64,000 bases of DNA. It comes from Ophelia neglecta (Eukaryota). Where the stretch lies: NCBI GenBank assembly GCA_965285935.1, contig OZ260665.1, positions 34,844,001 to 34,908,000 of the forward strand. Reading direction: 5' to 3'. The translations under genes and the position numbers were made by a program. Positions 8,013 to 31,200 of this stretch are shown here, piece after piece. Each line of letters starts with the position of its first letter. The first letter of the stretch is position 1. The notes under the pieces were generated by a model. The model was not told the origin of the DNA. It searched no databases and saw only the letters and a list, made by a program, of their open reading frames with translations.

Positions 8013-9684
8013 GACAAAGCGTTCATTTGTACAGTCAGGCGGGCATTGGGCGGTTAATACATATACTTACTGCCACGTGCCACAGCCGGTCATCTTGCAG
8101 AGATATCAACCCCCTAGTAATACAATAAATGATCAAAAATTAAACAATCGTATCACCCTCGTGGTACTGAATAATTTACCTATGCTAGGTGGACACGAAA
8201 CAATTTGCAAGAAATGTATTATAGAAAGCATTGCATGCACACGCTTTGCTACTGAGATTGCTCAAGGTGAATACATTTAATTTAAAGTGTTGAGCATGAC
8301 GATTTGGAATTGTGAAGTTCTATGTGGATACGATTCTTAGATATATGGTTGTTTTTTATATAGGATTTCAGCCTTTTCAATATCATGACATTGCTCTCGT
8401 TAAATACTATACCATTTTATGATATGTGTAAATCTTCAATTGTTTGAACCCCTTATTATGATGCTTTTCAAATTTCGATACACCAATTAATGAAAGAGAT
8501 TCAGCAATATAGCATGGGAAGTTTATGCCTCACAAAGTTGGTCGAGCTGAAATTTATTAAATTGGTGAAAGCGAAACTAAACCATTATATGTTAAAGTTA
8601 CCTAACACGCTCACATTAGCAGAAAAATGCAATTTTACCACATTTGAAGGCTTACATATTAATCTATAGTAATAAAAAACTGCTTTAGCTGTAAGCCAAG
8701 GCAAAACTAGCACACGTAACAAACAAATAAAAAGTTAAGGCTAAATCTTATTTAATTAATAGTGTATGAACATTTACAATACACAAATTACTTTATCATT
8801 TATAATCAAGAATCACGCGTGATTTATTCGGAGGAAATCACAGATTTTAGCGACGTCAATCCACAGAGACCCTCAAAGTCGGTCAAATGTCACACCCAAA
8901 ACACAATATACTTAAAATATCCTATTCTCTTACAGTTAGGAAAGAGACTCTCTTCAAACACTCGTGTATTATTCTCCAACAGCTAAACCCTATAACACTA
9001 CAGACGCGCTTAAATACAGGACGATAAAATGTCAACGCATCATAATAGTAAAAGGTCCACAGGTCTACCTCTGGCAAAGTTCACATGACTACTTTTACTA
9101 CGAAAGCGTATTAATATATTCTCAAAGTGAGGGCAAATGAAATTGATCACTCCAAAACATGCTATAAAAGAACGGCTGTATGTTATCCATGGTGACACTA
9201 GAATGACTGTTCTACCTGGTGATACTTCGCAATGGGGCACAACTCACCCCTTTGCAGGTGAATGATAAAGATGAAAAGGACATTGTATATTTTCAATGCA
9301 TAAATTTCATATTTGCTTGAAATGACTATTGATGGTGACTTTAAATTCCGAGTTTTGGTGGTCCTCTAGCTAGTTATCTGTGGATAAAGACACATTTGAC
9401 GTTGGTGAAGTATCCACCTCCGAACAACCAATGTTATAACACAACATCTACGATCAATAGGCACATGCGGATCCCTCATCCCTGGGGCCAAGTTCATTCC
9501 TAACATTTCCTCCAACAGTAGGTTCTGTGGGGTTTGTAGTTATTAATAACCTCGTCTCCGTACGTCAACAGGTCTGAGAACCAACCTCACGAGCTCAGTG
9601 ATACACCCGTACGAACTTGTTTACTTCCCGACATCGGTGCCAGTCAACAAAGGAGTTGTTTTATCCTGTCTTAAGCAAGGACCA

Positions 9685-10253
9685 TCACACATGTGAGGTC
9701 TCCATGTCGGTGGACATGAGGCCACGGTTGCTGGTACCTTGCTCTGAACCGCTGGAAGCCGGCTGGCCTTTGGCGTTCGTCTCGGCAGACTTTTTGCGGG
9801 CTGGCGCCTGTATCTGGAAGGTATTTTTCTCCCGGTGGTGTACCGTGATGCTGAGCGAGCGCACCTCTTCTTGTATGGAAGCGAGTACGGTTACCACCGT
9901 GCTGAGAGCTTTCTGGTTCTCAGACATGACACGTCGGATGTGCTCGATGTCGTCTTTCGTCTTCTGATCCTCCTTGGAGTTGGACTGGACGTGTTGGAGT
10001 CGGACGTCGAGCAGTTTGAGGGAGCGTTGGATAGCGTCCAGCTGCGGTATGGAGAGCAGCTGGACCTGCGGGGCGTTTTGACCTATGGAAGGGCGGCGGG
10101 CGCGAGTGGGTCGCAGACCGCCGCCCGGTCGTAAGGACATACGCCGCCGCATGTTGGGCCTGCCGCTATCCGAGGAGGGTGGGAGAGGAGGGGCCAAGTA
10201 GCCGGACTCTTGACCGTAAGATGGCGGGGGAGCATCGTCCCCCTCTCCCTCGT
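9685..10253 (-). CDS. TRPC: TRPC terminal coding exon: Pro-rich segment, coiled coil, ends ETSHV*
   Basis: ttttcag acceptor, phase-1 join, GC-rich coding composition, heptad-like segment [15 protein letters not shown]...[14 protein letters not shown] at 9687-9685. Confidence 0.82.
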
Positions 10254-13200
10254 CTGAAAATCAAGTCAATAGGTAAAGAAGCTATGATTAATGCCAAAAC
10301 GGCTAATTATTATAAGAGATCCATTTAATATAGTATGTCTCTAAACGCACATTATCAAATGTAGGTTAACAAACTAGAAGAATATATATGTTAACATGTG
10401 TGTTTGAATGGACTACACAGAAATGAGAAGATGAATGAGTCGATCCCTACCAGCAAAGGTTGGCTCTCTGCTGGCACTACTGTAAGCCTCTGTAGTGGCA
10501 CCTGCAATCATGCTGTCAGCTCCGGTATTGGTCTGGCCGCCTGAATATAAATGTCAAAAATTTAGGATTAATTCGAATTTTTATTCCTCTTTTTTATGAG
10601 TCATGATTTTCTTATTTGTAGTTTGTTGGTTGTATATGCTTCAGAACGTATGCTTTATTTGTGTGATCAGTGCTTGCCACAAGGATGAATTCTCGGGAGT
10701 CAAACTACTAATAAAGAGATTATTATTGTCATCAGTTGTTCAGTATACCATGCAAGCAGTCTCATATGGCTCTACGTTAACTATTGCAACAGTGCTTTGT
10801 GAATGACCTAGTTTACGATCAGCGACTCAGGCTTGTCCTTTGGGTGCCTATTAATGACCTAGTTTACGATCAGTGACTCAGTCTTGTCCCTTGGGTGCCG
10901 AATAATGACCTAGTTTACGAGCAGTGACTCAGTCTTGTCCCTTGGGTGCCGGAAAATGACCTAGTTAACGAGCAGTGCCTCAGTTTTGTCCCTTGGGTAC
11001 CGGTTAATGACCTAGTTTACGATCAGTGCCACAGTTTTGTCCCTTGGGTACCGGTTAATGACCTTGTTTACGATCAGTGCGTCAGATTTGTCCCTTGGGC
11101 ACCGGTTAATGACCTAGTTTACGATCAGTGCCTCAGATTTGTCCCTTGGGTACCGGTTAATGACCTAGTTTACGATCAGTGCCTCAGATTTGTCCCATGG
11201 GTACCGGTTAATGACCTAGTTTACGATCAGTGCCTCAGTTTTGTCCCTTGGGTACCGGTTAATGACCTAGTTTACGATCAGTGCCTCAGATTTGTCCCTT
11301 GGGTACCGGTTAATGACCTAGTTTACGATCAGTGCCTCAGATTTGTCCTTTGGGTACCGGTTAATGACCTAGTTTACGATCAGTGCCTCACTCTTTCCCG
11401 TTGGGTCCTGTTTCTGACCCACTTGCAATCAATGCCTCAGTATTGTCCTCTGGCAATCGGTTAGCTCAACAAAAAGGCCGAAAAAGTTGACTAATACTAA
11501 TACGTAACATACAGTTAAATTTGTTTCGGTGAAGTTAGTGATTCAGGTGAAAGCCCCAGAAATACTTTTGACTATAGGCTTGCAATTCGGCACAGTATTG
11601 CATAGCTACATTTGACTTTGAAGTCTCCGGAAGTAATTAAGGGTAGCAAATTTTAAATTGATAAAATTCTTATTGGCCAATTCATTGTCATCTATGATAT
11701 TTATTTCAAACTGATGTGGTTTATCTAAGCCTACAGAAAAACTCAATTTGATCGTGTTGTGTATAAGAATAAGCTACAATGGCGGGCGAACGAAAAGAAA
11801 CTACTGATAGAAAAGAAGCAAAACCTACAGGTTTTTTGTACTACTTAAGTGTGACTACTATTTTCGAAAGCAATAGTAAAATATTGATAAGGCTAATACA
11901 AAGGAGAAAATATTCAGGGAAGCACGATCGCGACAATAAAATAGTTATTCAATCAAATGTATATGATTATAGTGATATGTATAACGATAAAGTGTCGGTG
12001 TTGATGCTAAAATTTATTTTCAATCGGAAAGAGCGTTGGCTGTGCAGTGTAAATGGTCGAGGAACATCGTGTGAGTTGATAATTATATATGGAAAAAGGA
12101 AAAAAAACATGTACGTGTTGCAAAAGTCAAATCGAGAGCGTCCGTAAACAGCAAAGTGTAAAGCCTTTGCATGCAAGATCGAATGTGCATAACAATCATG
12201 CTGAAATCGCGCCCATGCTTAAAGCGAAGAGCCACACACTAGTACAGGAGCTTACTGGCACGAAAAAGGGAAAACCACTCAAAGGAATGGTCGGAAAGAA
12301 GTAGAGTAGACTGGAGGGCTCCTGAATCTTACCAAAGGTAGGGATCTCGGGCCGAGGACCCACATCGATGATCTGAGAAGGAGCGGCTATCACCATACTA
12401 CTTTGTTGATGATCAATTTGAATATCTGTTCAATGAAATGTTATTTAAGGGATCACTCTTTAGATTTCGACATTGCATCCTAAATGTGAGATGCCTGACC
12501 TACTGCGCAAAGATTTGAGATACATATGGATCAGTAAGCTCAAACAATCACACAATTCATATTAATTCTAATAATTTGTTTACACCGAAATAGTATACTA
12601 CACTTAACTTCACCTCAAAACTGTTAGTTATGATTTACTAGTCTTTCTAGAGACAACAGCATGCCTTAGATTCCTTACAAATTAGTTAGGTCGATTAAAT
12701 TAATATTCACTCACTTAACTACATGTACTTATTCATCAAGCAATAAAATATAAGTTTGGAGGGGAAAAAAGCTAGAGTCGAAATCAAACTAAACACAAAT
12801 AATGTTTTGGGCATTTCGATCGAGTGACAGAAGCTTAAATATGTGCGTTTTAAATAGTAAAGCATTCTTCTTGCTATTTCTTCTAACCAGAAGATGGTAT
12901 GCTAAAGACTTTAAGCAGATCACAATTCAATTGACCATTAAAACAAAATTATGTATTAATAAAGCAAAATAAACAATTTACTTCCTGATAATTTGAACCA
13001 TCACAATTAGAAAACATAGCATTTCATTGTTAGACCTATCGCGTCAAGATACAAGGATTTTACGGTAGGATGCATTATGAAGTAGTACTCAAATGCCTAA
13101 AAATGCCTGCATTCCGTCTACTAAATGCACTCTCTAAAGTGGCACGCAAAACTAATCTCTAAAAATCTACAGTAAATGCTGAAACAAGTGGGAACAAAAA

Positions 13201-16200
13201 TAGTCCTTCTTTTATATAAAACTTGTGCTTACCTTCATCTTTTTGTCGTTCTAATTTGAATAAATAACGCCGTACTAATCGCTGAAGTATGTCAGTGTAG
13301 GAAGTCTCTGGAGCTTCGATGTTAAGACTCTGGCATACATTTTCTCGGCGTTTCTGTAATGTTTTTAAACGTGTAGATAAACCTTCGCTCAAGGAGGAAA
13401 ATCTGATTGTCGATGTAGACATTTATTATACAAAACTGAATAAAATACAAAATATCATAAAGTGACCCATTACGTATAAAACTGGGATGCTGCTATGATA
13501 TCAACTCAGTTATAAATGTAATCAAGAAACAATTAACTTATAATACACTGAATTAATACTAGTAAATCAACTTTATTTAATAAAGCAACAACTACTGTAA
13601 CACTACCCTGCTAACAGTGGCCATATTGTTGTTGAAATTACATTTTTTAAATACTGAAAGGCGATATAAAGCATTTAACTCAATGCAAATACATAATATA
13701 GGCTCGACCGCCTGTGAGCAGGGTATTTCAACGCCTTTAATCTCACACGGTCATACCTTAAACAACAATCCAGGTATGAATGCTTCGCTGTCTTTCTTTT
13801 TGTCATTTTTTTTATTCTGTGAACACCAAAAGCAAAAATCGAAACATGTAACTTTACAGCTCACACATATTCGCACGTGATACTAGCTCTAAGAAAACCT
13901 CCACCAAGATATTGTAACAATAGAAGAAGTAACGTAATACTATTTATACAAAATACTACTACTGTAACAATAATAATATAGTCAAAAGGTGCTCAGTACA
14001 AATTAAAAACTACTAATAATTATAAAAGTTACTATCTGATACCGTTACAATATCCAATTTGCAAAATAGTATAATATACGTATTATGGATTTAGTAAATC
14101 TACTTTTTAATTAGCCTGTTAATTGCTATCTGTGTTTTTGAAAACGAGATATTTTGATACTAGCGACTTCTAGTAGCTACTTGCATGCTGTTATGGGTTG
14201 AAGATTTAACCGTTATTATTATTAAGGTGGTTACTCAAAGCGGCATGAAAATAACTCTTAAATTCCGTAATGATTGATACCAGCCATAATGAAAAATAAC
14301 ATGATGACTTCATTTTAGACAAGACATACGACATAATATCTTTGGGGATGATATGCGATGCTTGAAGCAGGGAGATCTATTACTGGGTTTATTTTTGCAC
14401 ACTATTTTCTCTGAAGTGAACTGGAACCTTCTAGGACTCTCTATACAGGTGGTTCATCTCACCTGTCATACACTGCGAGGTGTACACTCACTGTATATAT
14501 GTCAGGCGTTGATATGAAATCTACCCATCGGAATAATTCTCTTTTTACTGATAGGCATTTGAAGCCAGGTAGTTTATCAGACACGCCAGATTGATGTCTC
14601 GTATTTAGAGTCCCTTCAACTCGGCTGGATTTCGATATGAGGAATGCAGATAGATGTGCACTTGACTAGTTGCCTCTTAATATCATGTATCAAATTATCA
14701 TCATATCTGACTTAATGCGTTCTATAAAGCCGAATAGCTAGGTTAACTCTATGAAAAATAGCAAACAAGTTCTGGCAGGCTATGAAACACATATGAATAA
14801 TTAAAGTAAATGGAATGGCCTGTCTCAAAGCTTAACTACCACTCCTCTCGTTCCATTTATCTGTACAGAGTAATGTTGTTGTAGTACCGTCTACTGATAT
14901 ACAATTATATCTAACATGGCTGAAAATTGGGAATATGTACATTGATATTGTAACAATAATCTGCTAACAAAAACGTGACAATGTCAATTGTATGTTTTCA
15001 CGTTGGTGTGATACAACAAACGAGGGCTGGTGCATGGGTAGAGACTGTTAAATCATAGACAACAATTCACTATACGTACATCACAGTCGGACTAAGGACA
15101 TTACACATAACACTTTTGTGAGAAGTTATTGGTTTCTAACCTTGATGAAGGTTTGCCGCTTTCCCATTTCGTATTCTAGTAATCCGCCCGAATCAGACCT
15201 GATAATGGATTACCACACATGCAAGGCGTGTATTTTGGTGAGACAAGTATTATAGACAGGGTGATAGCCAAAATAATTAAGAAAAACAATTAGAACCAAA
15301 CACTTGGTCAGTTACACAAATTGTATTCTTTGTGGGGGAAGGGGGGTTCTTATAACGAAGAAATTATCTTCAAACTACTTTTCCACAAATAATTACCTAG
15401 TTCAAGTGGAAATCACATTTTATCACTGATAATACCCACACTACATGGACATTAAAGGGCAGAAAGCGGAGGCCTTTCGTGACATGGTCATTGATACAAC
15501 ATATTTCTAGAAGGGAACTTGACCTCCGATTTCTTTTACCTTCTGCGATTCTTCTTTTACCTGCACAGCCAATTTTCTGAGCCCTTGTCAGTCATGGCAT
15601 GCACGTGCTTTTCTCTTAATATTACTTTCAGAGAATGCCACCAGGCATATGATTCTCACCTAGATAAGTCTTTGATCCATCTCCATAAGTATTTGATCGA
15701 CTTGGGCGTTGGTATCATATTGAATGGAACTGGGAGGGTACTTCCTTCGTCAATATAATTCATCCACAGATTTGTTCGAGCAAATTTCCATTCTACATCA
15801 CAGTCACCCTATTCAGATGGCCACAATGAGATATCATAAATATTGTATACTTTTACAAGTGATATTTCGCTTGTGTTCATTTGAAAAACAGTTACCTCCA
15901 TGTACCAAATGTTAATCAGTTATACACACATTTTATCAAATATAATAATGTAAACTATATTGATGACAATTCGAATTAACGGGAGTTAATGTGTAGTCTT
16001 AAACTTAGGTAGACGAATTATAAGTTAAACCTAATTTATTTATGAAACATAACCCTATCCGCCTATGGTGTTAAAAGGCTGACCTGAATATCTTCAAATG
16101 AGTGGCTCATCATTGCAATCAGCATGTTGACTAGGACAATGATGATGACGACGTGATAGCAGGCGAAGAGAAACATGCCTACCCCCTCAACGACCGAGGT

Positions 16201-19200
16201 GGCATGGTTACCGCCTGGGAAACTACAGACGAACAAAATATCACTATCACTCCACCGATTATGAAGAACAAAGATGAATAACATAGAATAGTTTCTTGAG
16301 ACTCTTTAGGCACAGTGGTATATGTTGGATACAAGACGTATAGGGGTTGTATGCTCATCAGTGGGAAAGGTGTAGGTATGTATAGATAGATGAACTTCAT
16401 GATAAATTATAATTTATAAGACGAGCACCCACACGCCTTTACACGTTTGTTAAACCGAGAGACCCCACCCCCAACAAACACTCACTCGACGATTTCGGGA
16501 CGTTATTTTACAGTTTCACTCAAGGACCACTGGTAAAAAATAAAATCCCCAAATCTATTCTTCTGCCATATATCACAACCCTGCACTGCAACACTGCCAC
16601 AATGCTCACAGTCTACCAGGTCTGGGGTCGTAAACCCCACCTCCACCCATCCCTGCTGCACAACGGAGTTGTTGCTTAACACTAATTATCTATAATATAT
16701 GCTTTTTATCAATTTAATACCTCGGCTGGACCTCCCACGACCTCAAACCTCTTCTGCACCGCTTACCTAATTTATATTGTTTATTTCACGGAAAATGATT
16801 ATTAAGTGAACAAATGACATGCAAGAGATGCAAACAATCACGGAGTGCAGTAACAGTTCGTCAGGATTTCTCTCCGATTAACATAATGATAAGCATTGAC
16901 TAGCGCCATTTGATAATACCCACCTGTATTCGAATCGACTATTTTGATTCTTGCTAGGGTATTTTATTTCTACGCTGTCGACTGATACCAGCCCGAACAT
17001 GGACCATAGCAATGTGTACAAAGTCCGAGGTAAGCTGGAAAACAGTAAAATGAACAGGAAATTATTTTCTGTGTATTCAAAGTATCACCACTTGATGCGA
17101 TTATGTGGCACGAAGAAGGGATTAAATGCCATGAAATCTAGAATTTCAGGAGTTTTGTCAAATTTAACGACAGTAGGATAACTACAGAAGGAATAACGAT
17201 AAGATGACAAGCGTCAGGAAGGAAACACTAAGATAAATGACAGGAAATAGCTAAAAGTTCACGCCTACAGCTATCAGAAAAACAAGAGATAAAAGCATAG
17301 AATACATTTCTACTATGCTGGCAAAATAAAGTAATTTGGCAAAGCAAAGTACTTCTGGGTAGAATAACGTTCTGTGTTTGGATTTACTTCGTGCAATGTG
17401 TACAATGTGTAACACATTGCACGGTCTTCTGAATAAAGAAACAAACCGAAGATCCCAGAAGGGAAGGAAGTACTAAGCCTATGATAGAAAGTCAAGCCTA
17501 AACATCAACGGTTAATTTGGAGGTGAGCGAGAAACACTTACTTCACAAAACCAAACGTGTTATCTGGCGTAGCCAGGGAGTTAGCTACAGCTCTGCGAAC
17601 CCTTGATCTATGCATCGATCCCCTATGACATAACCAAAACACAGAACGTTAAATACGCACTGGCGTTTCGCTCACACTAGGCTTGCAAAATTTGAATGAC
17701 AAAATAGAACGAAAGCTTCCTCACAGCACACAGAACGCTTAACAATTACATTTTAACTGCCCTATAGGTCAATGCAATTGGTTGAGATATGCATACTGGG
17801 AAACCAGTCAAGGGAAAGATGGGTTAAATAAAAAAAATAATGCGATTACTGTAAAAATATCAGTCAATAATTTACATACAAGATCTAGAGCTTGTTGTGG
17901 GCTGATATTCATATGATGTGTAATAGAGCGGAGGGAAGGCCGGTATCTGGAGAAGGAGAGGATCAACAAAGAAGTGGACCTACCCCTGAAATGCCTCGGA
18001 TGAGTGGATGAGTTTGCCACCATTTATTTTATACGTTTGTGAACCATAGTACCAGTACAGGTTGTGTAACCCGACCATGAAGGCAAATAGCACCTGAAAA
18101 AAAGAACAGTGTTCAAGATAAAATAACATCAAAAACACGCAGGTGACATCAATATCTAAAACATTCGGATTAATTTTGCAAACACATTCATTTGTCTTTT
18201 ATCACATGTCCTTCTGTATATTAGCTTATTACTGACTGAGCAAGAAAATCATAGTGTTGGATGTAATTGGACGTTTGAAACTTCAAACGCGTAAAAAAGG
18301 GCAGTAAGGTGCCTGGCTGCAACCAGGAAGTTCCCTTCGGCGTTTTAATAACAGCTGCGATATTAAAGTTATAGTATGTTTATGCATTGACAAAGGTCGT
18401 AACGGCCGCCTATTGCAAAGTCAGGTCTTATTTTCATCTCCCCACGGAATATGTCTTTAAATAACTTTGTAGAAGATGGATAGTTAGAACAACAGTTAGT
18501 TAGCCTGCACATTTGGCAGTCACTTGAATTCTGATTGGTTCATACGTATATATTGCTAGTGGACTATAGTGGTTTCTCATAAGTTGTTTATTGTTTTACA
18601 TACAATGAAGACATCATATCTTTCATTGTAGCTTTAAATATGATACCTTAACATTATGGCATCTTCATAGTGGAGAGAACAAAACACATACGGCGACCAA
18701 AATTATACCAACCAGAATCCAAGCTAGGTATGTAGCCTAGCTCACTCGGATAACTTAATTTTTAAAAGCAGACATTAATACATAATTAACATTATTAGAA
18801 ATTCGTAATTGAGTAAAAGTATGTCAATGATAAGAGGGGTTACCAATGAGAATAGGACGAGGAAGCGGCTGATGTCGGCGATCATACGCCCGAGGGAGAT
18901 CTGAAGGGGCCCGAGTACCTCGAAGGCCGGCATGAGGTAGGTGGTCCGGGCGATACTCAATACGTTAGCCACGGCAAACAGCACGTCGGATACTATCTCT
19001 GGATCGTCCGGCTTCCAGACAAACCGAGCTGAATACAATATTAAAACACGTCACAAACAATAAGATCTCAAAATGAATCTCAGCGCGAGATCAATTCATC
19101 TCAAAATAAGGGTAACGCTTGTCGGCAAATTTCGATCAGGATTGGTGAAGTACAAATGTAGGTTATCGCAAACTCTTTTTAGTTAACAACCAGAGCAAAT

Positions 19201-22200
19201 TTCTGTGCATGTTAAACACAGCGTTGATAAGGTTTGAAAGTAAAGACGATATTCTAAGGATGATAACTGTTGAAGATAAAAATGCCATTTATTGGATGGA
19301 ATCAATGACAGTATCAACTAATATACCTGCGTATTGTGTTCTCTGGGACAATTATTGGATACAATAGTCAGTTGTTTACTAAATCATGTTTATCATATAT
19401 CCTGCGCAATTTATGTTTGATACATCATTGGTTTTTTTCTTTCTCCGAAAGTTTCTGATGAAATTGGACGATATAATGGATAGTTCTTAAAGGCTGAATT
19501 TGAAAGTGGCAGCGTAGTGATTTACGTTTTCACTTAATATGTTCGCTTATTCTTCTATTGTTCATGTTAAGCATATTGTTTTATCATGGTCCCTTCTTAT
19601 TGTGAATTCTTGATCTGATTTAATTACCCCTTGATCTGATCTCATAACCTCTTTTAATATTTCATGCTAACTTTCCATACCTTTTCATGTAATGGAATTT
19701 ACACACAATTTGCACTTTGAATGGTGGAATGCGATGTGCACGTGAAAGTTCTGCATTTTAAATCCTTATTTTATATTGATCATGTTGGATTTTCATCGGT
19801 TGGACTTTTACTGGTGAAATGTTTCGTCTCATTTTGTAAAAACTCAGTGCTTCTGTCATTGTTGTAAAGAACTCTCGTCTTATTGTGTTTACTGTCTCCC
19901 TCTTTGCATGTAAGAAAACCATCTGTTTATTCCATCATTTCCACCTCATTATTGACGCAGCTATAAGGAGCTCCAGCAAAAAAATTGTCGTCTGGTGAAT
20001 ACCCAGCAGAAAAAGCAGAATCAGTAAACAGGAAGTGTAAATTCAATCGGTCTGAAATCACTCGAAACAAAGACGATTCTAAATTAAACCGTATTTGCCA
20101 TCTATTTATTGGGTATAGATGACATGATAAATAGTATACAGCATGGTATTCTCATAACTGTTGAAGAAGTTAACTGCTGATAACTCCTTCACTCAATGCT
20201 TGTGTGATATTCTTGATAATCACTTTGGTTATTGGTGGGAGGATCAGAGTGTGCAATACACTTGTCAGTAAGACCAGTCTATTAATGAAATATATTAACT
20301 CTAGAAGGCCTATTTCCAGGACTGTTTTTAGCCAATAAATTACTTGTCAAAGTATCAAAGAATAATCCAGCTAGATGCATTGGCTTTTGAAAATACAAAA
20401 CTTTCCAAAACAGACTAATCTATTGGAAGCCAATACAGGGCCAATTGCACGGATTCTCAATAGGAATAAGCCACCTAGAAGTCCAATCACTCTCTTTTAC
20501 ACGCTCTGCTAATAAGCATTGGCATTCTTTGCTAATTACTCATATTGGTTAATTTCTGATAATAAATACCATGATGGTTCATACTGTTCACAGCCATGCG
20601 CCACTCATAGAAAAGCTACCCAGTTCTCAGGGAGCACATCGTTGTCTCTATACTGAATTTTTGTACATGGTGTATCCAAACACATGCCCTCTGAATCTGT
20701 GGTCATGTCAAGACATATCTCCGATTAGAGCGATTTTGTTTCGACGCACGTAGGCCATATATGTTGAATTATAAGTCGTTTGACGAATTCAGTACTGCTT
20801 CCATCAAACGTGTCAAATGATGGCTTGCAATACAAATCTTCTTTTTATGCAAGAATAAAAAATGCCAATGTCGGATATCAATATGTTCATTAAAAAAATG
20901 CTACTGTAATGAAGATGGATATGCATATTTAGTAACTTTTGGGCACGGATTAAAGACACGTGATTTATATGAGTTGCAGTTGTTAGAAAGTTCTTTTTAA
21001 AAGGTTTACAAACAAGAAATTAGTTTGTTTATACAATGACATGGTAGCTAAACTTCTCGATTACAAGTCAATTTTATAGAACTTGTTGAGCCCACATAAT
21101 GTTCAAACCTTGATAGGATAGAAAATCTATATATGGAAAAGAGTGCATCCAAACAGTTGGTTAAAAATGTGAATATTCATAGAAAAGCCCAAATAGGTAA
21201 TTTTCCTATAATTCAAGTTAGATCTTCCTGAGGAAACTACTGAGTTTTGACCTCATGATAAGGGCCATGTCAATTTCAATTGGACCGATGGAAATATGAC
21301 CAGTATTAACCTCAAAGAAACATGTGAAACTGTTGGATATATGAACATGTTAGTTATGAATGAAACAGGAAAGTGATAAATATCTGTACTCTAAATTAGA
21401 CACAGATGCGGATACCCGACAGATAAAAAAATCGCTCATCAAGCATATGCCATTAAATGTGTTCGACATCTTTCGGAACCAGCAGCCACAGGCCTAGATA
21501 AAAAACAATGGAGGAATGGCGATAACTATGAAGATTGGCAAAGCAGCAAAGAATATACATGTTCAACGATGAGGCATGATTTTTGAAGCATGAAAATTGC
21601 AAAATGAACCATGCAGCGCGGCCAAAATAGTATAAACAATACAAACAAACATAAAACATGTATGACAAAGAACTATAATCATAATACAATTTAAACCTAA
21701 GTTGCATTGAATAATGCAATGTCCTAAAAAAGATTAAAATTCAGTCAAATAAAACACAGGGGTTCGATATTTTAAACACGGACAAAAAACATAAGACAAG
21801 ATAATAAATAATATAACGAATGTATATAACGCATACAAATAGAATATTCAACATCAACAGAGCAAAATAATGTAAAGGCAATGATATATCCAACATGAAC
21901 AAGGTTATTAAAACTGCTGAACGGATCATTCAATATCACATTGCAAAATATGCATCATGAATAAATATATTGATACATTTCTATATTAACTTAACACATA
22001 ATATAGCTTGTTGCGCGACCTCACAGGAGATGATATTTATAATTTATATTTGTTCGACATGGTAAATTTTTCATTGTGATATAAGACCAGTCGCATTGAT
22101 TTAACGATTACATAAGTGTCAATCTCCCCATTTTGAGCGTTGCAAAAAGGAATCCCTGCTGAAAATACACAAATATTGTATTTTCAAACCTTAGATATAA

Positions 22201-25200
22201 ATTAAGTGGTTTCCTCAATACTTACATGCTTTCATGAAGTAGCTTTTAACCGGCTCATCATGATCTTCAAATATAGAGTTTTTTATGTGCTCATAATATG
22301 TCATATTTTTTTCCAACAGAGCACTCCTCGCTCGAGCCGTGCCATTATAATATCTGTCAGCGTCTTTCACCCAATGGTCGACGAGAAAACGTAAGACGTA
22401 TGATGATAGGTAAAATGAGAGCACCATGTAGTCTACCACATTGTAATTGTCTAGAGCATAAACGCGTATTCCTGAGTTATACATCTGCTTGCATTCCATC
22501 CACATTAGACCTGAAATGGAGGTAAAACGGATTATATTACATAACTTAACACTGAACAATGTTATTGTGTCCATTAATAAAGGAATATCTAAATCGTTTG
22601 CGGTTAATACTGTAGTCACAGAACGCTAGTGTACAGTTATCACTCAGAGCACTTATTTCTAATGTATTGGTTTAAGCTTTATCTCATCCCTTTGTTATGA
22701 TGTGTTCCCTTACAATCCAAATCTCTAACTTGCGCACTTCCTATACTCACCAAAAACCCAGAACATGAGGCCGATCTGGACATGAGTCATTAGGATGTTG
22801 GCTGGGCGGAAGTTGCCTTTCAGGATTCTTTCCACTTTCTCCTCGAATGGAAGAACGTTCTTAGTGTCCAAGTCGAAGTCTTCGAAGATGGAATCGCTGA
22901 GATTCTCCTTATCGGAGGATACAGGGTATCCCCTCTCCTCCAGCCTGAAAGTGGCTGCCGCCAGCAGGAACAGGAAACACATGTGGGACAAAGTGTGAGT
23001 GATGAACTTAGCCGCTGGGCACCGCAAGGCATTTCCTAACTGTGGATAGATAGTGCCGTTATTTCAGTTTATTGGCCTTACAATTAATTACGGAGACCAG
23101 CATTCATCTTTTGATTTTAATAGTTTTATCAAGGCAGAATATAATACCGAACAAGATCAAATTATACAAGTGTGGTAAGTTGAGCAACAGCAAAAAAGAA
23201 ACTGTGAACGCCCAAGCTTCTTGAGGCCTAAACCAAAGTCATCGGGAGATAGAAATACGACGATGATACATTTGTTAAAGACATTAACGAAACTTAATTG
23301 ATCTAAATGGGTCACAATGTTTTTATGCTTAACGCTGATGCAACAAGTGAATAAAAATGCTTTATCTACTGCCTTCTTTTGATCTTGCACCATTAAGCTC
23401 TCTGCAATAGTTATAATGTAAGAATATGATGCATAAGTTTACTATGGACATGTCAGACTAAAACAAAACTTGTTAAAGAAAAATACAAGTGTTTTTAAGA
23501 TATTGTCACTGAAATTTAGTACCAATTATATCCATGGGTATGGGGTTCCATAAGACTGCTCGATATTACTTCACTTTCCGTTGCCCGTCATTATATTATA
23601 AGTTATGTATTATGTAAGTAATTTATTTATCTTATTCTATTTACTTCTCAATAAGTAAAGTATTGTGAGCTTGTAGGTTATGATAAATAATAAAATAGAA
23701 TGAAAGGTATTTTATTATTGTTCGTACTGCTAGTATTGTTTATATTAACGACGACCAAAAAACGTATTTGTCTATTATGTTCATCTTTTGGATATATAAG
23801 TTTTTAAACTCGTTTTATTTTATTCCCTATGATCCTGTATTCTACAGTTATTTAATCTCTGTCTACCTTGACTCGATTGCTTAATGAGTCTCATCATGCA
23901 AACTGTTTGCTGTCCCTCGTTCCCAGTGATTTCAATTTAATATGTTATCATTAATTTCGTTAACATTGTACTTGCTGTTAGGGATTCGGGGCTTGATGGT
24001 TGTGGGCCTGCAGCTGACAGTTCCGATGACTTCGCATCGCTTTAATTAACTATGATGTATCAATGATTTTGTTTGGTCAGCCGAGTATCCGCTCCCTTTA
24101 TTGTATTCCCTGTTCTTGTCGACTGGACCTTTATGCTTCTAAGCCCAGACAGCGTGTATTTCAAGGCATCAAGCATTTTTTTAATGTTGATTTCCAGTCC
24201 AAGTGTTGATCCTGATTTACTCAACAGCAGGTTATGAAATGAAATCTTACTGCGATGTATGATTACTTCCAGGGAAGCTTTATTTGTACGAATTAAAATA
24301 AGGTCGATAGGGTCAATTGTGCTTATGGTGACTACACGATTTCGGATCGTTTCAATTGTCATTTTTTTCTGTAAGAACGTGTTGAGCTGCAAAAAGAATA
24401 TTTGCTAAGATTATGGTGTCATCATCATATAATCATATTTGCCTTACTGTAAATTCTTTAAGTGTTGACTATTGAATCATTCCATGGAATGGAGTGACAT
24501 CTTATTTCGCAGAACTTACATTTTCCAAAATTAATTTAATCATTAAAGTGAAAAACGCAATTTGTGGATCAACGAAAATCACATTCTATATATCAATGTA
24601 TTTCTTACACTTTGTGCCTAATTTCATTCACAGCTAGTGCAAAAATAATACTGCTAAACAGAAAGCTGTATGTAAAAAAGTATTTTCTTTTTATTTGGTA
24701 AAAACGAATTTTTTTTTTATCCAATCCTAAGGGTTTATTAAAATTGATGAGGAAGGTAATACCTAAAGTGTTCTGAATTATCTTTGTTTCTATTTTATGG
24801 ATAACGTTTGCCCTTAGACTGCCAATTATCTTTCTGCCTGATACTAGTCGCGGTTACCCTTTCCTTGAACTTTTCGCTTTGTGCAACAACTTTTTTTAAA
24901 TGTATTGTTAAGAAATATTGTATAGAATGTATTAGGTTATGTGCACACCTCTTCGCTTTAATAAAATTCACGCTCTGTGAAAGTGTTTATTAGCCCAATC
25001 TTTTATGTTTGGCTTATTATTTTCTTGTAGGTTTCGAAAACATGATAATGAAGTTGGCAAATGGTTAGTCATGCCACAGTCAACATTAAACCATATATGG
25101 ATTTGATAACATTTCATAGGTTGACAATTCACAATGAGTCATATCTGTCCATAGAGGCCATTAATACAATACATTAATGGTCCTAATTTGCAACGACATT

Positions 25201-28200
25201 TATTGGTTTTCAGTTCAACTGTTTTAAGTAGCGTGCCATTTCACTGTACAGAACGCTTCGTTCTGGTGAGATCCGACCACATATATTCGAAAAAGCTCTA
25301 GAAAGCGGACATTGAGGTAAACTCAGACCCGGAATAGGATGAAAACTGACAATTAGCTCAATCAGGCTTCAACAGCGATAACAATAACTGGACGTTTGCT
25401 GAATAAACTGTCAACATACATAGCAACCGAGGTATTAAATTTATTGTACACTGGGTCCCAAAGCATTTTCGCTTCACTAAAATATGATCGTATTGTTCAG
25501 AACAAATATAATATTTTAGAATTATGATCATAGATATGTCTGTGCTATACTTACCTTAGAATCAGGAGATAAAACATATATAAGACAGAAGAAGGGCACA
25601 AGAGGTAAACAGAGTATCCACATGAGTATTTTCTTCCACAGCGCTATCGATTGCATAAACCCCATTTCAGGGCCAAACCATATACTCGTCAGGTGTTGCT
25701 GGCAATTAGGGTGGGCAACAAACTGCAACATAATCCTTTTATTGTTATTGAAATGATTAATTATATAAAAATCTGAAGTTACTAAAAATTTCACAACATT
25801 TACCGACATTGCGGATGTTTTATTACATTTAAAAAATAACGAAAAACGAAAAACACCGATAACAAATAAAACAAACAATCAAACTATTGTGGTTATCGAA
25901 ATAGGAGATGAAATAAAAATACCATTGTTAGTAAATTCATTCCATGAACATTGGCAATAAGATAATATACAACCTTGGTAATCGTAAAAGTGGTAAGTGC
26001 TTACGGAAAAAAATCCCTTGTCCGCTTGTATGGAGCCATTCTTTGGATGGAATAAAAGCATGTTTTATCAATCGCGGTTTTACCAGAAGCAAAAGTATTT
26101 GGTTTATGGGTTCAGGGTGCACAATGCTTTACAGCATGCATATAGGGAGAGAGCACTCTCTGGTGATCTACTGAAATTCAGTGCAAATTGGGATTCACTC
26201 CAAACAAGACAGGCCTTTAGGACCAAAGAGAAAAGCGAAAAGAAGGGTGTCTCGCGTATCAAGACGACTGGAATGGCAGGTTGTGCATATTGCTTATGTT
26301 CACGGAGGTAAAAGATATGTGTACTGGTATAGGTATGCATTTGACAGGCACCCAGTCTAGGGCTCACGAGTGACCACTAAGAAAACGATATGTCAAATTG
26401 GTGCAAATAATTTGGAAACAGGATAATATTAAGCCATTTTGAGTTTTGGTACAGTTTCAAGATGGCTATGTGTTCGCTTGGTCATACAACGAGTATGTGT
26501 TTTGTTTCAGAAATATTGAAACAGTCGTAAAGAAAAAAGACGCTGTATTTATTTACATCGATAAAATAATGTATCTTTGTTTTATTTCCTGCTGGTCCTA
26601 CCTTTTTTATTTATATCCTATGCTTTGAATGGGATTTAATCTGTGTGCCATACACCATTGTAGAAAGCATTTCTACGTCTGGTGTTTTTTGGAATGTTGT
26701 TAGTTTCTGTTAAATCTTTGAAGGGCCTTCCAATTTTCCCATTTGATAAGAAAAGTTTCAAAAAGAAGAAACTTGCTTAACTGTGACTTCTCTATAGTTG
26801 CCTTATACATTGTTTTATACAATACCTTGCTTAGGTCAGGGACGGGGACACTGCAACTCAGTGCAGACAATGACATTTTTCTTAAACAAATGTGTATGCC
26901 TTTAGACCAAAAACCTATATTTCAGCATTTGACCAGACAAGCTTTATCTACAGCAAAATCATCTGGGGAAAGCCTGGTTATCCCGCTTCCAAAGTATATG
27001 CAAAACACTCAGATATAAGTCTACACCAGTGTTACATGCTCCAGAGACGCGAAACTTATTGTGTTGATTTATTGTTAATTAAGTCAAGTGGTTTTAAACT
27101 TGGTTCGTTTTACGATGCCAGTGATTATGTTAGTGATTCATAATCCAATAAAACTACACATCTGGACAATACTACTTCAGTAATTACACAGTGAAGCATA
27201 GGCGGAAAAAACTCAATACAGAAAGAGGAGGGATGCAAACAAGGGAAGATATGCACTGCAATGTAAAACTAGGAAACAAGACACCATCAAGCAGGCGTTT
27301 GCCATCACACAGAGTGGGAGCGGATGGTGTATATCAAAAAGAACCTTTTTCTCCTCGTATTCCATGGCCATTTTGAGTCGTGCGAGAGGGTCCCGCGTCC
27401 CATTATCTTCGGAGCCCTCGCTGAGCACTGCCTCTACCTCTTGTGTTCCCCGGCAGAGGTCCATTAATTCACAGGCAAAATCCATGCACTGCTCTACCAA
27501 ACTCAGGTATTCGTTCTGAAAAAAACGCATTTTTGTTTTGTTTATGGCATGATATCAAACGTCGGCATCTTTTTATATAAAATATGTGATTGTGGTTCTC
27601 ACAAAACAGCATCGTTGACTAACACAGCTCTTCATGAAAACTCGCTGAGTGAGTTAGCTTACTGAAAACATAACTAGCATACTTTCTTCGCACCTTTTCG
27701 TTTCAACTGGCAATCAAGGAAGCGATAAATAACACATTATCACTTAACTGGAGCCAAGTTCTTGGTAGTAGTTAGGCTTTCATAAAAGCAATTCCTCAAC
27801 CATTTGTCACATCAGAAGTGATTAACTTAGTTAAGACATTATATAGGCCTAGTACATGCCAAACATTTAATGAATTCGCTCACCTTGAACTCTTTTTCGA
27901 CTTGTGCCAGTTTTTTCATTTCTTGACGGAGTTCGAATGTGGTCATAATGGGGTCGGGGCTGGAAAGTGCCATGTAGGCCGGGCTGGCCAGGGCCCGATA
28001 AGCGTTCAACCGCGACCGCGAACGTTTTAACGAATCGTAGTTCTGTTTAGTCACACAGTCCGTACATTGGCACGATATTGGGTGAGGTTTCTCTAGCACG
28101 TGGTTCCGAGCTAGAAATATCTGTATAATCTCGTGGTTGTTGTAGTGAGCGGCGAGAATTAGTGGCGTAATATCCGGAGAGAACTGCGATTTTTCCTCAG

Positions 28201-31200
28201 TTCGAAAAAACGGGTCTCTTACTCCGGTCCTTTTCATGTGGTCCTCCCCCGCCATATAAGTCGGGTGTTCAACTATCACTTTGACTATTTTTATAGAGCC
28301 TTTACTTATTGCATGTAAAAGCGCCTCCTCAATGCACTCGAAGTTGAGTTTGTCCAGTAGAATCTCCGCCGCCTCCATATTTTCACTGTCCACTGCAAGG
28401 TGGAGCGCGTTTCGCCCCATGTAGTCCACACAGTTGACATTGAGTATGACCTCATTTTCCTCAAGACTCTGACGTATGATGCCCGTGTCACCCATCGCCG
28501 CCGCGTTCAGGTATAACCGCTCCTCGTCCGTCAACTACAAAGAAAGAAGACAATTACAGCACAGCACTGAGTCAAGCATACTCCAACAAAACCTGAGATC
28601 AGCCTCACACTGATATAACAATATTGTATAGTGCAAATGGACGTGTTCATGAAAATAAAAGCGTGATTGGTTCACTTTACTTCTTTCTTTGAAAGAGAGT
28701 TCATCCAGACAAATTCATCTATTGTCTCACATAAACTTATGAGAGAGTTTTTTGCCACCCAATAGTATCTCTTGGGGCAAATTTAATCTGAGCCATGTGT
28801 AGACTACTCATTCATTTTATTCTATGTATAAATTTCGTAACAATCTTATTTACAGTTGATGCACTGGGTAGTGGTGAATTTGGGCCTGCAGCTGTCTGTT
28901 CCTGATAATTTCAGATTGATTTAAAGAAATGTTGTTGATTGATGATTGTATAGTCTGTCGTATACCCACTCTTTTTTATCGGGGAACTAATCTTCACAAA
29001 ACATCAGTATTCGCGTTATCAGTCTTTAGAAAAAAGAATCACAACTGTGAGTGCGCACGATTTCTTTATTTGAGGTGTGCGTGTTAAAAGATATATAATG
29101 GAAAGAATGAACTCCATAGTTGTGCACCTTAAATACTTGACTGTTATATTGTTTATTAAAGGAAACATAGCCGAAATCAATTTGACAGATCCCAAAAATT
29201 AAAGATTATTTTCCATCAGGACAATTTAATTATTTTGGTGTGTAAAGTATTAAAACGTTTATCGTAGTCAGTGACACATATTAGCGGAAATTACCCAAAA
29301 TCCCACAGCTGACAGAGATGGCCCGAATCTATCATTATAAGTGAAAGATGTGCGAAGGATCTCAATGCCGAATAGAAGGCAAATGTATCAAGGGGAAATT
29401 GTCAACGATTACTGGACACTTCTCAAAACAATGAGGATTGTCATTTTTCACATTCTATAACTTATTAAAACGTCAGATTACTTTCTTGAATAATAGGTTA
29501 GCTGGGGTAAATAACAAAACGCCGTTGACACCCCAGACGCTTAGTATAGATAGTAACTTTAATAGTCCACAAGGATTATGGCGGAAGGAATTTATAGTTA
29601 ACATGTAAAAAGCATGAGACTCCCGTTCAGACTGTAGAATTATAGGAAGTTCATTTTCGGTCAGGAGTTATTCATTAACTGAGTAAAAAATGTATCAGGA
29701 ACCGTCAGCTGTAGGACCAAAAACATCACTCCCAATTTGTTTCTGTGAATAAGTTGTTAATGAATTAGTAATAATTGATTTATACATTGAAATAACCCAG
29801 TAATGTTAACCATTTCTGTCAATCTGAGAGATTAAAATAAATCAATCTTTTCTCGTATTTTCATTACATTTCTTTAAATAATGTCTTCCTGTGAAAGTTA
29901 CTCAATGCAGATGTTGCACATAAGATTGAGTTTCAGGAGTTTTTATTGGTAAAAGGATCATTGTTGCTCGTGGTTATTCGGTGCTAAATACTTAAACTGT
30001 CAGGATATCACTTTACAAATGAACCCAGTAACCACAAAAGGCCAACTCTGATGACATTTGTTTATGAAATATCCTCCTGTTTATCTTAATATTTGATCAC
30101 CCGATTTGAAAACTATAGGTTTGCTTTGTGTTATTTTCAAAATTGATCCCACCGGAAATGAACGATAAGGCCTGTTTCTCTTTACTTCAGAAGATTTCGT
30201 ACATGTGTGTGATTTAGTACAATTAACATTGATAAGTCTGCTTCTTGTCTTGTTTTACTTTACTCAGAATCATTAAAGAGATGGTACGATTGATAACAGT
30301 CTAGTTTATATAAACATTTACACCCTCTGTCTAAAAGTATTGCTGAATTGAGCGGTTTGACAATATAAGCCTAGTGGTGGGTGTATTGGCCCAGAACGCA
30401 ATGCAGCAAAAGCATTCGTAGAAAATACCTCTTCCATTATGTCAGAGAAAACAAACATTTTCATATGGCCTTATGTCCCACTTCTGAACAGGGTATTAGT
30501 TGCTAGACAAGTGCCACGCGCATGTCAATGAGCTTGTCTAAGCTGATTTGACGCTGATGCCAGCCACAAAGAGCCAAACATTTCCATCGTTCGACAGCGG
30601 ATTTTTGCGAATAAACACCTAACAGAGTCGTTGCGGATAAGTGACAAAAAACAGGCAGGCAAGGAACCCTTTCAAACCAGACCCAGAACGTGGAATAAAC
30701 GAAGCCGAAACCGTAGAACGACAAAAGTTAAATGGGCCAATATCCAGATCTCCATAAAATACCCAATGTGAGCCGAGCCTTTACAAGTCCATGCCTCTTT
30801 TCAATTGCTGTTGGTAGCAAATCATTATCCCGAAACATCCGCCATTTAGGCGAATTCAAAAAACCGTATCACTCATAATCGCTTTATGAGAAAGGCCCGT
30901 GAGTTATGAGTTTGTTTAATCCTAGTCAAAAAGAAGCAGGAGCTTTGCTGATTATTGGCTTTGTTAATGAATGAGCTCTTCTATATTCCTCAACCGAAAC
31001 GCCGACAAATGCAGTGGACATGATTTGCAACCTGCATCCCAAGCGGTCGGTCACGAGTCAATGACAAACCGGAAGTAGCGAGAGTGTTGGCAGGAAGTCA
31101 CTTTTGGTGATTTATTGCTTTCCCGGGCTACCCGACCCTTAGCTACTTCGAACGGAAAGTATTTCTACTCGACATCTGCCAAATAGTCGTGCCTCAAAGT

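Follow-up and report, generated by a model that had tools for sequence, protein, structure and literature searches.

The question raised by this locus is whether pairing between two intronic arms of a pre-mRNA decides on the inclusion of a small candidate exon in a TRPC channel transcript. The window, i.e. the whole 64,000-nucleotide stretch of Ophelia neglecta DNA that was analyzed, harbours a gene on its minus strand (approximately 28540 to 9800), identified as TRPC by its ankyrin repeats, its S5-turret-pore helix-S6 order, its TRP box and its best matches, which are to TRPC. About 60 spiralian TRPC proteins match the ankyrin exon with 75-83% identity, and the named proteins nearest to the pore region come from annelids, namely Helobdella (P0060 and P0062), followed by Owenia and siboglinids. 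For comparison, metagenome contigs were scanned, yielding 217 relatives of which the best 80 were kept. Among these best 80, a complete intron at the same position and in the same phase as the host intron was found in 51 loci, representing 34 distinct groups. The host intron measures 949-950 nt and is a phase 2 intron. The exons concerned are:

17984..18093, minus strand: TRPC S5/turret exon, with its phase 2 end just before the pore helix; located by tblastn with annelid TRPC proteins, its intron position being common to the 51 loci among the best 80 of 217 relatives.
16924..17034, minus strand: TRPC pore-helix/selectivity-filter exon, phase 2-2; located by tblastn with annelid TRPC proteins.
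17542..17622, minus strand: candidate cassette exon of 81 nt, phase 2-2, with TAG acceptor and GTAAGT donor; predicted only.

In profile alignment, the region matches the turret and the first part of the pore helix in the solved TRPC4 and TRPC5 chains, and the available part of PMC5951680 places the turret and the LFW motif in the aligned TRPC4/TRPC5 region. The pore helix of the window reads YTLLWS (17021-17001, minus strand) where all 34 homologous groups from the best 80 of 217 relatives have xSLFWx, so that the LFW motif is altered here. The same stretch of the pore exon recurs in the intron as a 13-nt direct copy (approximately 17405-17393), and it also has a bulged complement of 18 bp there, at 17430-17411. 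The duplex of the latter with the pore exon (-24.1), considered as an editing-complementary structure, was set aside as unexceptional; pairing of an intron with its own pore exon was stronger in 9 of the 34 homologous introns from the best 80 of 217 relatives. The next intron (16923-16223), which separates the pore and S6 exons here, is apparently missing from most related loci, in which the two are contiguous. Three DNA runs of one sample differ at about 1 position per kb (40 of 61 differences listed), and two of the three carry a 51-nt deletion allele at 16430-16482.

The reading frame of the candidate exon (17622-17542) contains no stop codon, and inclusion would add 27 residues with the motif RVRR, which we take to fit the furin-type consensus R-X-K/R-R. 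A 51-nt variant, starting at an inner CAG at 17593, would be devoid of this motif. Splice sites were scored with matrices derived from related loci (73 donors and 118 acceptors), all from species other than that of the window. The donor reaches the top possible score (7.5), while the acceptor (6.4) is near the lower quartile of real sites. With score thresholds that, like the Phe and furin features described below, were picked after the candidate had been seen, four AG-GT pairs reaching both candidate scores were found in 15,839 nt of sense intron, three of them using the candidate donor; the frame-keeping pairs among the four are those of 81 and 51 nt, both on this donor. The antisense strand of the same 15,839 nt has no frame-keeping pair at these scores, and other parts of the window yield approximately one in 89,000 nt. 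In the homologous introns (34, from the best 80 of 217 relatives) an equally scored frame-keeping pair occurs in one, and in 10 at relaxed scores. With the exon included, a Phe also remains 12 residues ahead of the Trp of the pore helix; the same spacing is seen in 115 of the 116 homologues, out of 192, that could be anchored. Among 2716 stop-free intronic stretches, taken as overlapping windows, the Phe register occurs by chance in 226, a furin motif in 29 and both in 3.

Searches for the exon outside the window brought no counterpart. No homologue was found by tblastn at E values up to 1 among the best 80 of 217 relatives, and a search of 1.84 billion representatives with the cassette peptide gave a 52-residue repeat protein as sole match, which was rejected as spurious. 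P0011 is the only protein in the orthologue range with an insert at the S5-pore junction, and the sequence of this insert is unrelated to the candidate exon. A search for short protein fragments retained 8 proteins from 30 candidates, of which P0189-P0191 and P0193 start in intron read-through and are uninformative on the insert. Contigs of the three DNA runs across 9500-29000 give genomic cover, with no joint at the exon. A second AG-GT segment of 41 nt (17428-17388, minus strand), which overlaps a 12-bp hairpin, was rejected as an alternative candidate: its acceptor is good (7.1), its donor is weaker (5.4) than that of the candidate and it is out of frame. It may represent a poison pseudo-exon, since its inclusion would shift the frame. 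Judged by frame, splice signals and register, 17622-17542 is probably a real exon that would be spliced into part of the transcripts, and its insert might be cleaved by a furin-type protease.

The intronic elements around this candidate are:

17637..17651, minus strand: arm A1, which covers the U/G-rich tract of the candidate acceptor together with the branch-point-like adenosine at -27.
17365..17379, minus strand: partner arm P, which lies 163 nt beyond the 3' end of the candidate exon and can pair with A1 over 15 bp without mismatch and with D over 12-13 bp.
17728..17741, minus strand: second ('decoy') arm D, pairing with P at -19.8 kcal/mol; one extra base compared with the other copy.
17390..17423, minus strand: perfect local hairpin of 12 bp inside the loop.

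A preliminary description of this DNA had reported a perfect inverted repeat with an extension across a bulge, and both were confirmed. The arms at 17365-17379 and 17637-17651 are exact reverse complements of 15 bp, spaced by 257 nt, and the helix gains four further pairs across a 1-nt bulge to reach 19 in all, with a predicted energy of -24.1 kcal/mol (duplexfold). The distance of the partner from the exon end, given there as about 165 nt, was measured as 163 nt. The upstream arm had been described as covering UUAAC and the tract, 15-29 nt upstream of the exon. Indeed, A1 (17651-17637) covers positions -29 to -15 relative to the AG ending at 17623, including the adenosine at -27 of TTAAC, which is presumably branch-point-like, but the first T of this element (17652) is just outside the arm.

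None of 3000 dinucleotide shuffles of the host intron yielded a repeat of at least 15 bp, the largest being 14 bp, and within the window it is the only perfect repeat of at least 15 bp with a spacer of up to 2000 outside the ATT/TAA microsatellite at 61474-61527. Folding of the pre-mRNA predicted the A1:P helix with a probability of 0.84-0.92 in 4 of 6 folding windows. It is conceivable that the exon is real and the repeat incidental, having arisen by chance or by a local template-switch duplication and leaving splicing unaffected. Repeats of at least 15 bp appeared in 2 of 40 whole-window shuffles at spacers up to 500 and in 8 of 40 at spacers up to 2000, and perfect repeats of at least 12 and at least 15 bp are present in 8 and 3, respectively, of the 34 homologous introns (best 80 of 217 relatives). 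Shuffles thus understate the background, since real homologous introns exceed them in perfect repeats. The block contains other short copies as well, namely the 13-nt copy of the pore exon and the 12-bp hairpin. Against coincidence, the arm sits on the branch point and the tract, and a helix of -24 kcal/mol with the pairing probabilities given above could hardly stay neutral if this exon were in use. We regard an incidental repeat as improbable.

The block enclosed by the arms is unusually stable. The 320-nt segment 17660-17341 had the lowest z score (-5.4) among 46 windows of a grid that was chosen so as to contain the block, and on an independent grid of the pre-mRNA an overlapping window had a z score of -4.4, the lowest of 141. 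The two strands fold alike (z -5.35 for plus, -4.97 for minus), with no preference for the pre-mRNA strand. The interior of the block is structured also without the arms (z -2.84, 2 of 200 shuffles being as stable), as would be expected if the 290-nt block were a structured RNA encoded in the intron, with a terminal stem closing it and no connection to splicing control. However, there were no Rfam matches at E values up to 1 in 16900-18100, no tRNA genes in the window and no similarity in the best 80 of 217 related loci, and this reading is considered very improbable.

Of 10 acceptors of the gene that were compared, the candidate one forms the strongest duplex with downstream sequence (-24.5, versus -11.5 to -18.4), and P pairs weakly with the other nine (-6.5 to -11.7). 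Modelling of the whole intron in the A1:P state left the branch-point region 0.28 and the tract 0.13 unpaired. A duplex covering the donor instead (17677-17663 with 17537-17523) was about 4-5 kcal/mol worse and was dropped. Complementary arms thus flank the exon at a stability above background, as in a loop-out, and these models suggest that the A1:P helix forms in vivo and represses the exon. The proposal in the preliminary description that the duplex loops out and silences the exon is thereby borne out in silico as regards the masking of branch point and tract, while repression itself is a deduction from it. The further proposal that the duplex is an independent sign of a real and regulated exon found no support. 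The available text of PMC8052449 reports that human complementary regions are over-represented at inactive and cryptic splice sites and under-represented at active ones, so that a duplex alone is no proof of exon use. Moreover, the long terminal repeats of an element in a homologous intron (L013) enclose an equally good pseudo-exon.

The helix might also serve solely to suppress a cryptic exon that happens to have a consensus donor, in which case inclusion would not be regulated and the long isoform would have no function. The tract being paired in both predicted states (0.13 unpaired) is consistent with such constitutive silencing, as is the lack of this insert in the orthologues. Against it speak the Phe register, the reading frame and the furin motif, which suggest selection on the peptide, and we hold this function to be improbable.

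The second predicted state involves arm D. The partial third copy claimed in the preliminary description is present at 17728-17741, with one extra base, and was found to pair with the same downstream site P (-19.8 kcal/mol). D:P was favoured in two folding windows starting at 17800, and over the whole intron the minimum free energies of the A1:P and D:P states are 1.3 kcal/mol apart, which makes competition plausible. In the D:P state the accessibility of the branch-point region rises from 0.28 to 0.58, but the tract, which folds back on 17670-17663, remains at 0.13. The decoy would therefore free the acceptor only in part, and the claim that it does so stands for the branch point and not for the tract. 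None of 41 control stretches paired with P as well as D does, whereas the alignment score of D with A1 was reached by 338 of 2000 shuffles; the significance of D is borderline. By the same shuffles (338 of 2000), the idea that D and A1 arose as tandemly duplicated units is unsupported and was discarded. In this model D might act as a switch. D also spans -26 to -13 of a weak AAG acceptor at 17716, which would give a 174-nt exon with a stop codon built from the first three bases of A1, and another acceptor beside D would give a 178-nt exon with a frameshift. An alternative-acceptor switch at D is possible but speculative.

It had been stated beforehand that the proposal would fall if the arms were fragments of a high-copy repeat. 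At 90% likeness this is not the case: the depth of the bin 17312-17962 corresponds to a single spanning contig in all three DNA runs of the one sample, which indicates that there are no extra copies at 90% likeness. A short high-copy repeat at 23988-24024 was observed in the same runs, with a bin depth of 287-1177, a more than tenfold rise. Flat depth over the block compared with this rise at about 24000 argues against a young high-copy element.

An old element is another matter. TA-inserting MITEs derive from Tc1/mariner, and TA marks insertions of the Tc1/mariner type. The block could be a decayed non-autonomous MITE of 283 bp (17367-17649) with 13-bp terminal repeats at TA, the exon being a pseudo-exon inside it or one exonized later, and the pairing a by-product of its ends. 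Like such elements, of which L013 and L048 hold apparent examples, it is approximately 280 bp long and intronic, with terminal inverted repeats and TA at both outer ends of the arms, and its folding is strand-symmetric. Three homologous introns from the best 80 of 217 relatives have repeats of at least 15 bp: that of L023 is a simple repeat, while the long perfect repeats of L013 and L048 (at least 29 bp) are TA-flanked and transposon-like. The MITE-like elements in these introns extend over 646-1401 (L013) and 757-843 (L048). An end of the former recurs in L078, and it encloses a 69-nt in-frame pseudo-exon (approximately 1030-1098) with a splice strength equal to that of the candidate; L048 is the only homologous intron more structured than the block (1 of 32 groups, from the best 80 of 217 relatives). 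In contrast, the repeat of the window has only 13-19 bp, short compared with those of L013 and L048. Dispersed copies are lacking, there being no second copy of the block in the 64-kb window and no additional contigs at 90% likeness in the three DNA runs. Segment 17367-17649 is formally compatible with a TA duplication, but other direct repeats of 2-3 nt suit neighbouring boundaries equally well, which makes TA weak evidence. Furthermore, a perfect core in an old single-copy relic requires luck or selection, and the Phe register and the furin motif are left unexplained. Derivation from a MITE is thus judged unlikely, while deserving more weight than coincidence or constitutive silencing.

The arms have no counterparts in the homologous introns. 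The best blastn hit to the window intron had an E value of 0.24, and no exact arm matches were found in the best 80 of 217 relatives, whose introns are unalignable with the window intron. Most of the 34 groups do not align mutually either. This does not refute conservation, since these relatives are too distant for alignment. The arrangement is not old, however, because some homologous introns measure only 186-230 nt. One of the homologous introns, that of L033, has a perfect 12-bp inverted repeat (1306-1317/1796-1807), the downstream arm of which is placed at approximately -32 to -21 relative to the constitutive acceptor of the pore exon.

Several orthologues show variation of their own around the pore. 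Two tandem copies of the pore-helix exon occur within single gene models of the gastropod proteins P0011, P0022 and P0165, which suggests mutually exclusive pore exons in a gastropod orthologue. A two-cysteine segment following the filter is present in the mollusc orthologues P0001, P0008 and P0013 and absent from P0025, P0036 and P0059, which points to a conserved cassette exon for the loop behind the filter. The selectivity filter contains Ser or Gly (MFSQ or MFGQ) in P0007 and P0148 versus P0010, and in P0043 versus P0041; octopus models also differ from a close relative in Ile/Val and Asn/Ser. A-to-I recoding would give this pattern of Ser/Gly, Ile/Val and Asn/Ser differences.

The explanation that we prefer, tentatively and with confidence somewhat short of even, is a lineage-specific loop-out that masks the acceptor of a real cassette exon. 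In this mechanism the S5-to-pore intron of an annelid-like TRPC gene would have acquired a weakly defined, lineage-specific exon of 81 nt. Once transcribed, P would pair with A1 upstream of the exon, and the resulting helix of 15-19 bp would hide the branch point and the tract, leaving the exon in a folded loop of 257 nt. Skipping would be the default, giving the ancestral S5-to-pore junction. Inclusion would follow if the acceptor were bound before P is made, or if P were captured by the upstream copy D, and would place 27 residues with a furin-type site in the extracellular turret. A more ambitious version, which we consider a long shot, is a two-state RNA switch of one partner and two competing arms that controls a newly evolved turret exon and renders TRPC furin-cleavable beside the pore helix, possibly built from an exapted transposon whose end supplied the branch point. 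If true, this switch would imply a protease-processed TRPC isoform whose output is set by pre-mRNA folding. If the preferred loop-out is confirmed, it would provide a compact (less than 400 nt), easily mutated case in which RNA structure controls splicing in an annelid-like animal, and the part of TRPC affected would be the extracellular turret. The splicing mechanism itself is well known and the finding is a prediction from a single genome. The result listings of a literature search in a collection with few subscription journals mention neither an exon of this kind nor furin cleavage of a TRPC turret.

Looping-out of exons is reported to reduce their inclusion in the sections consulted of PMC8052449 and PMC10790352. 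The candidate resembles the human pairs of conserved complementary regions (PCCRs) and the Drosophila Nmnat loop-out described there, in that a cassette exon is bracketed by intronic arms spread over a few hundred nt, one of which overlaps with the tract, and in that reduced inclusion is the predicted effect. Unlike the present single-genome prediction, those cases were defined, as far as these sections go, by conservation or experiment (PMC8052449, PMC10790352). Human complementary regions also tend to avoid branch points according to the same part of PMC8052449, whereas the arm in the window covers a branch-point-like site.

The preliminary description had drawn an analogy with Dscam1. Docking-site/selector systems (Dscam1, 14-3-3, Mhc, ATE1), as outlined in the available portions of PMC10790352 and PMC6071210, share with the locus a single site, P, that is complementary to both A1 and D (-24.1 and -19.8 kcal/mol, with the decoy borderline), so that A1:P and D:P are mutually exclusive. 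In contrast to the systems in the accessible part of PMC6071210, there is no cluster of homologous mutually exclusive exons here and one donor only. The D and A1 units share nothing beyond a 15-nt core. Pairing beside the exon is predicted to hide the acceptor rather than to expose it, and the model, with branch-point region and tract 0.28 and 0.13 unpaired, does not activate the adjoining exon. As it combines a single candidate exon with a repressive geometry and lacks a cluster of homologous exons, the locus does not belong to this class.

On the protein side, exons 12a/12b of Lymnaea Cav3 also vary the extracellular loop from S5 to the pore helix by splicing in a spiralian cation channel. 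These exons are mutually exclusive, functionally tested and part of another channel family, as described in the excerpts of PMC10017353 and PMC9694082, while the window has a single additive predicted exon with a furin-type motif. Splicing of the turret region in Lymnaea Cav3 changes ion selectivity according to the available text of PMC10017353, and by analogy it is the nearest functional precedent for the arrangement described here.
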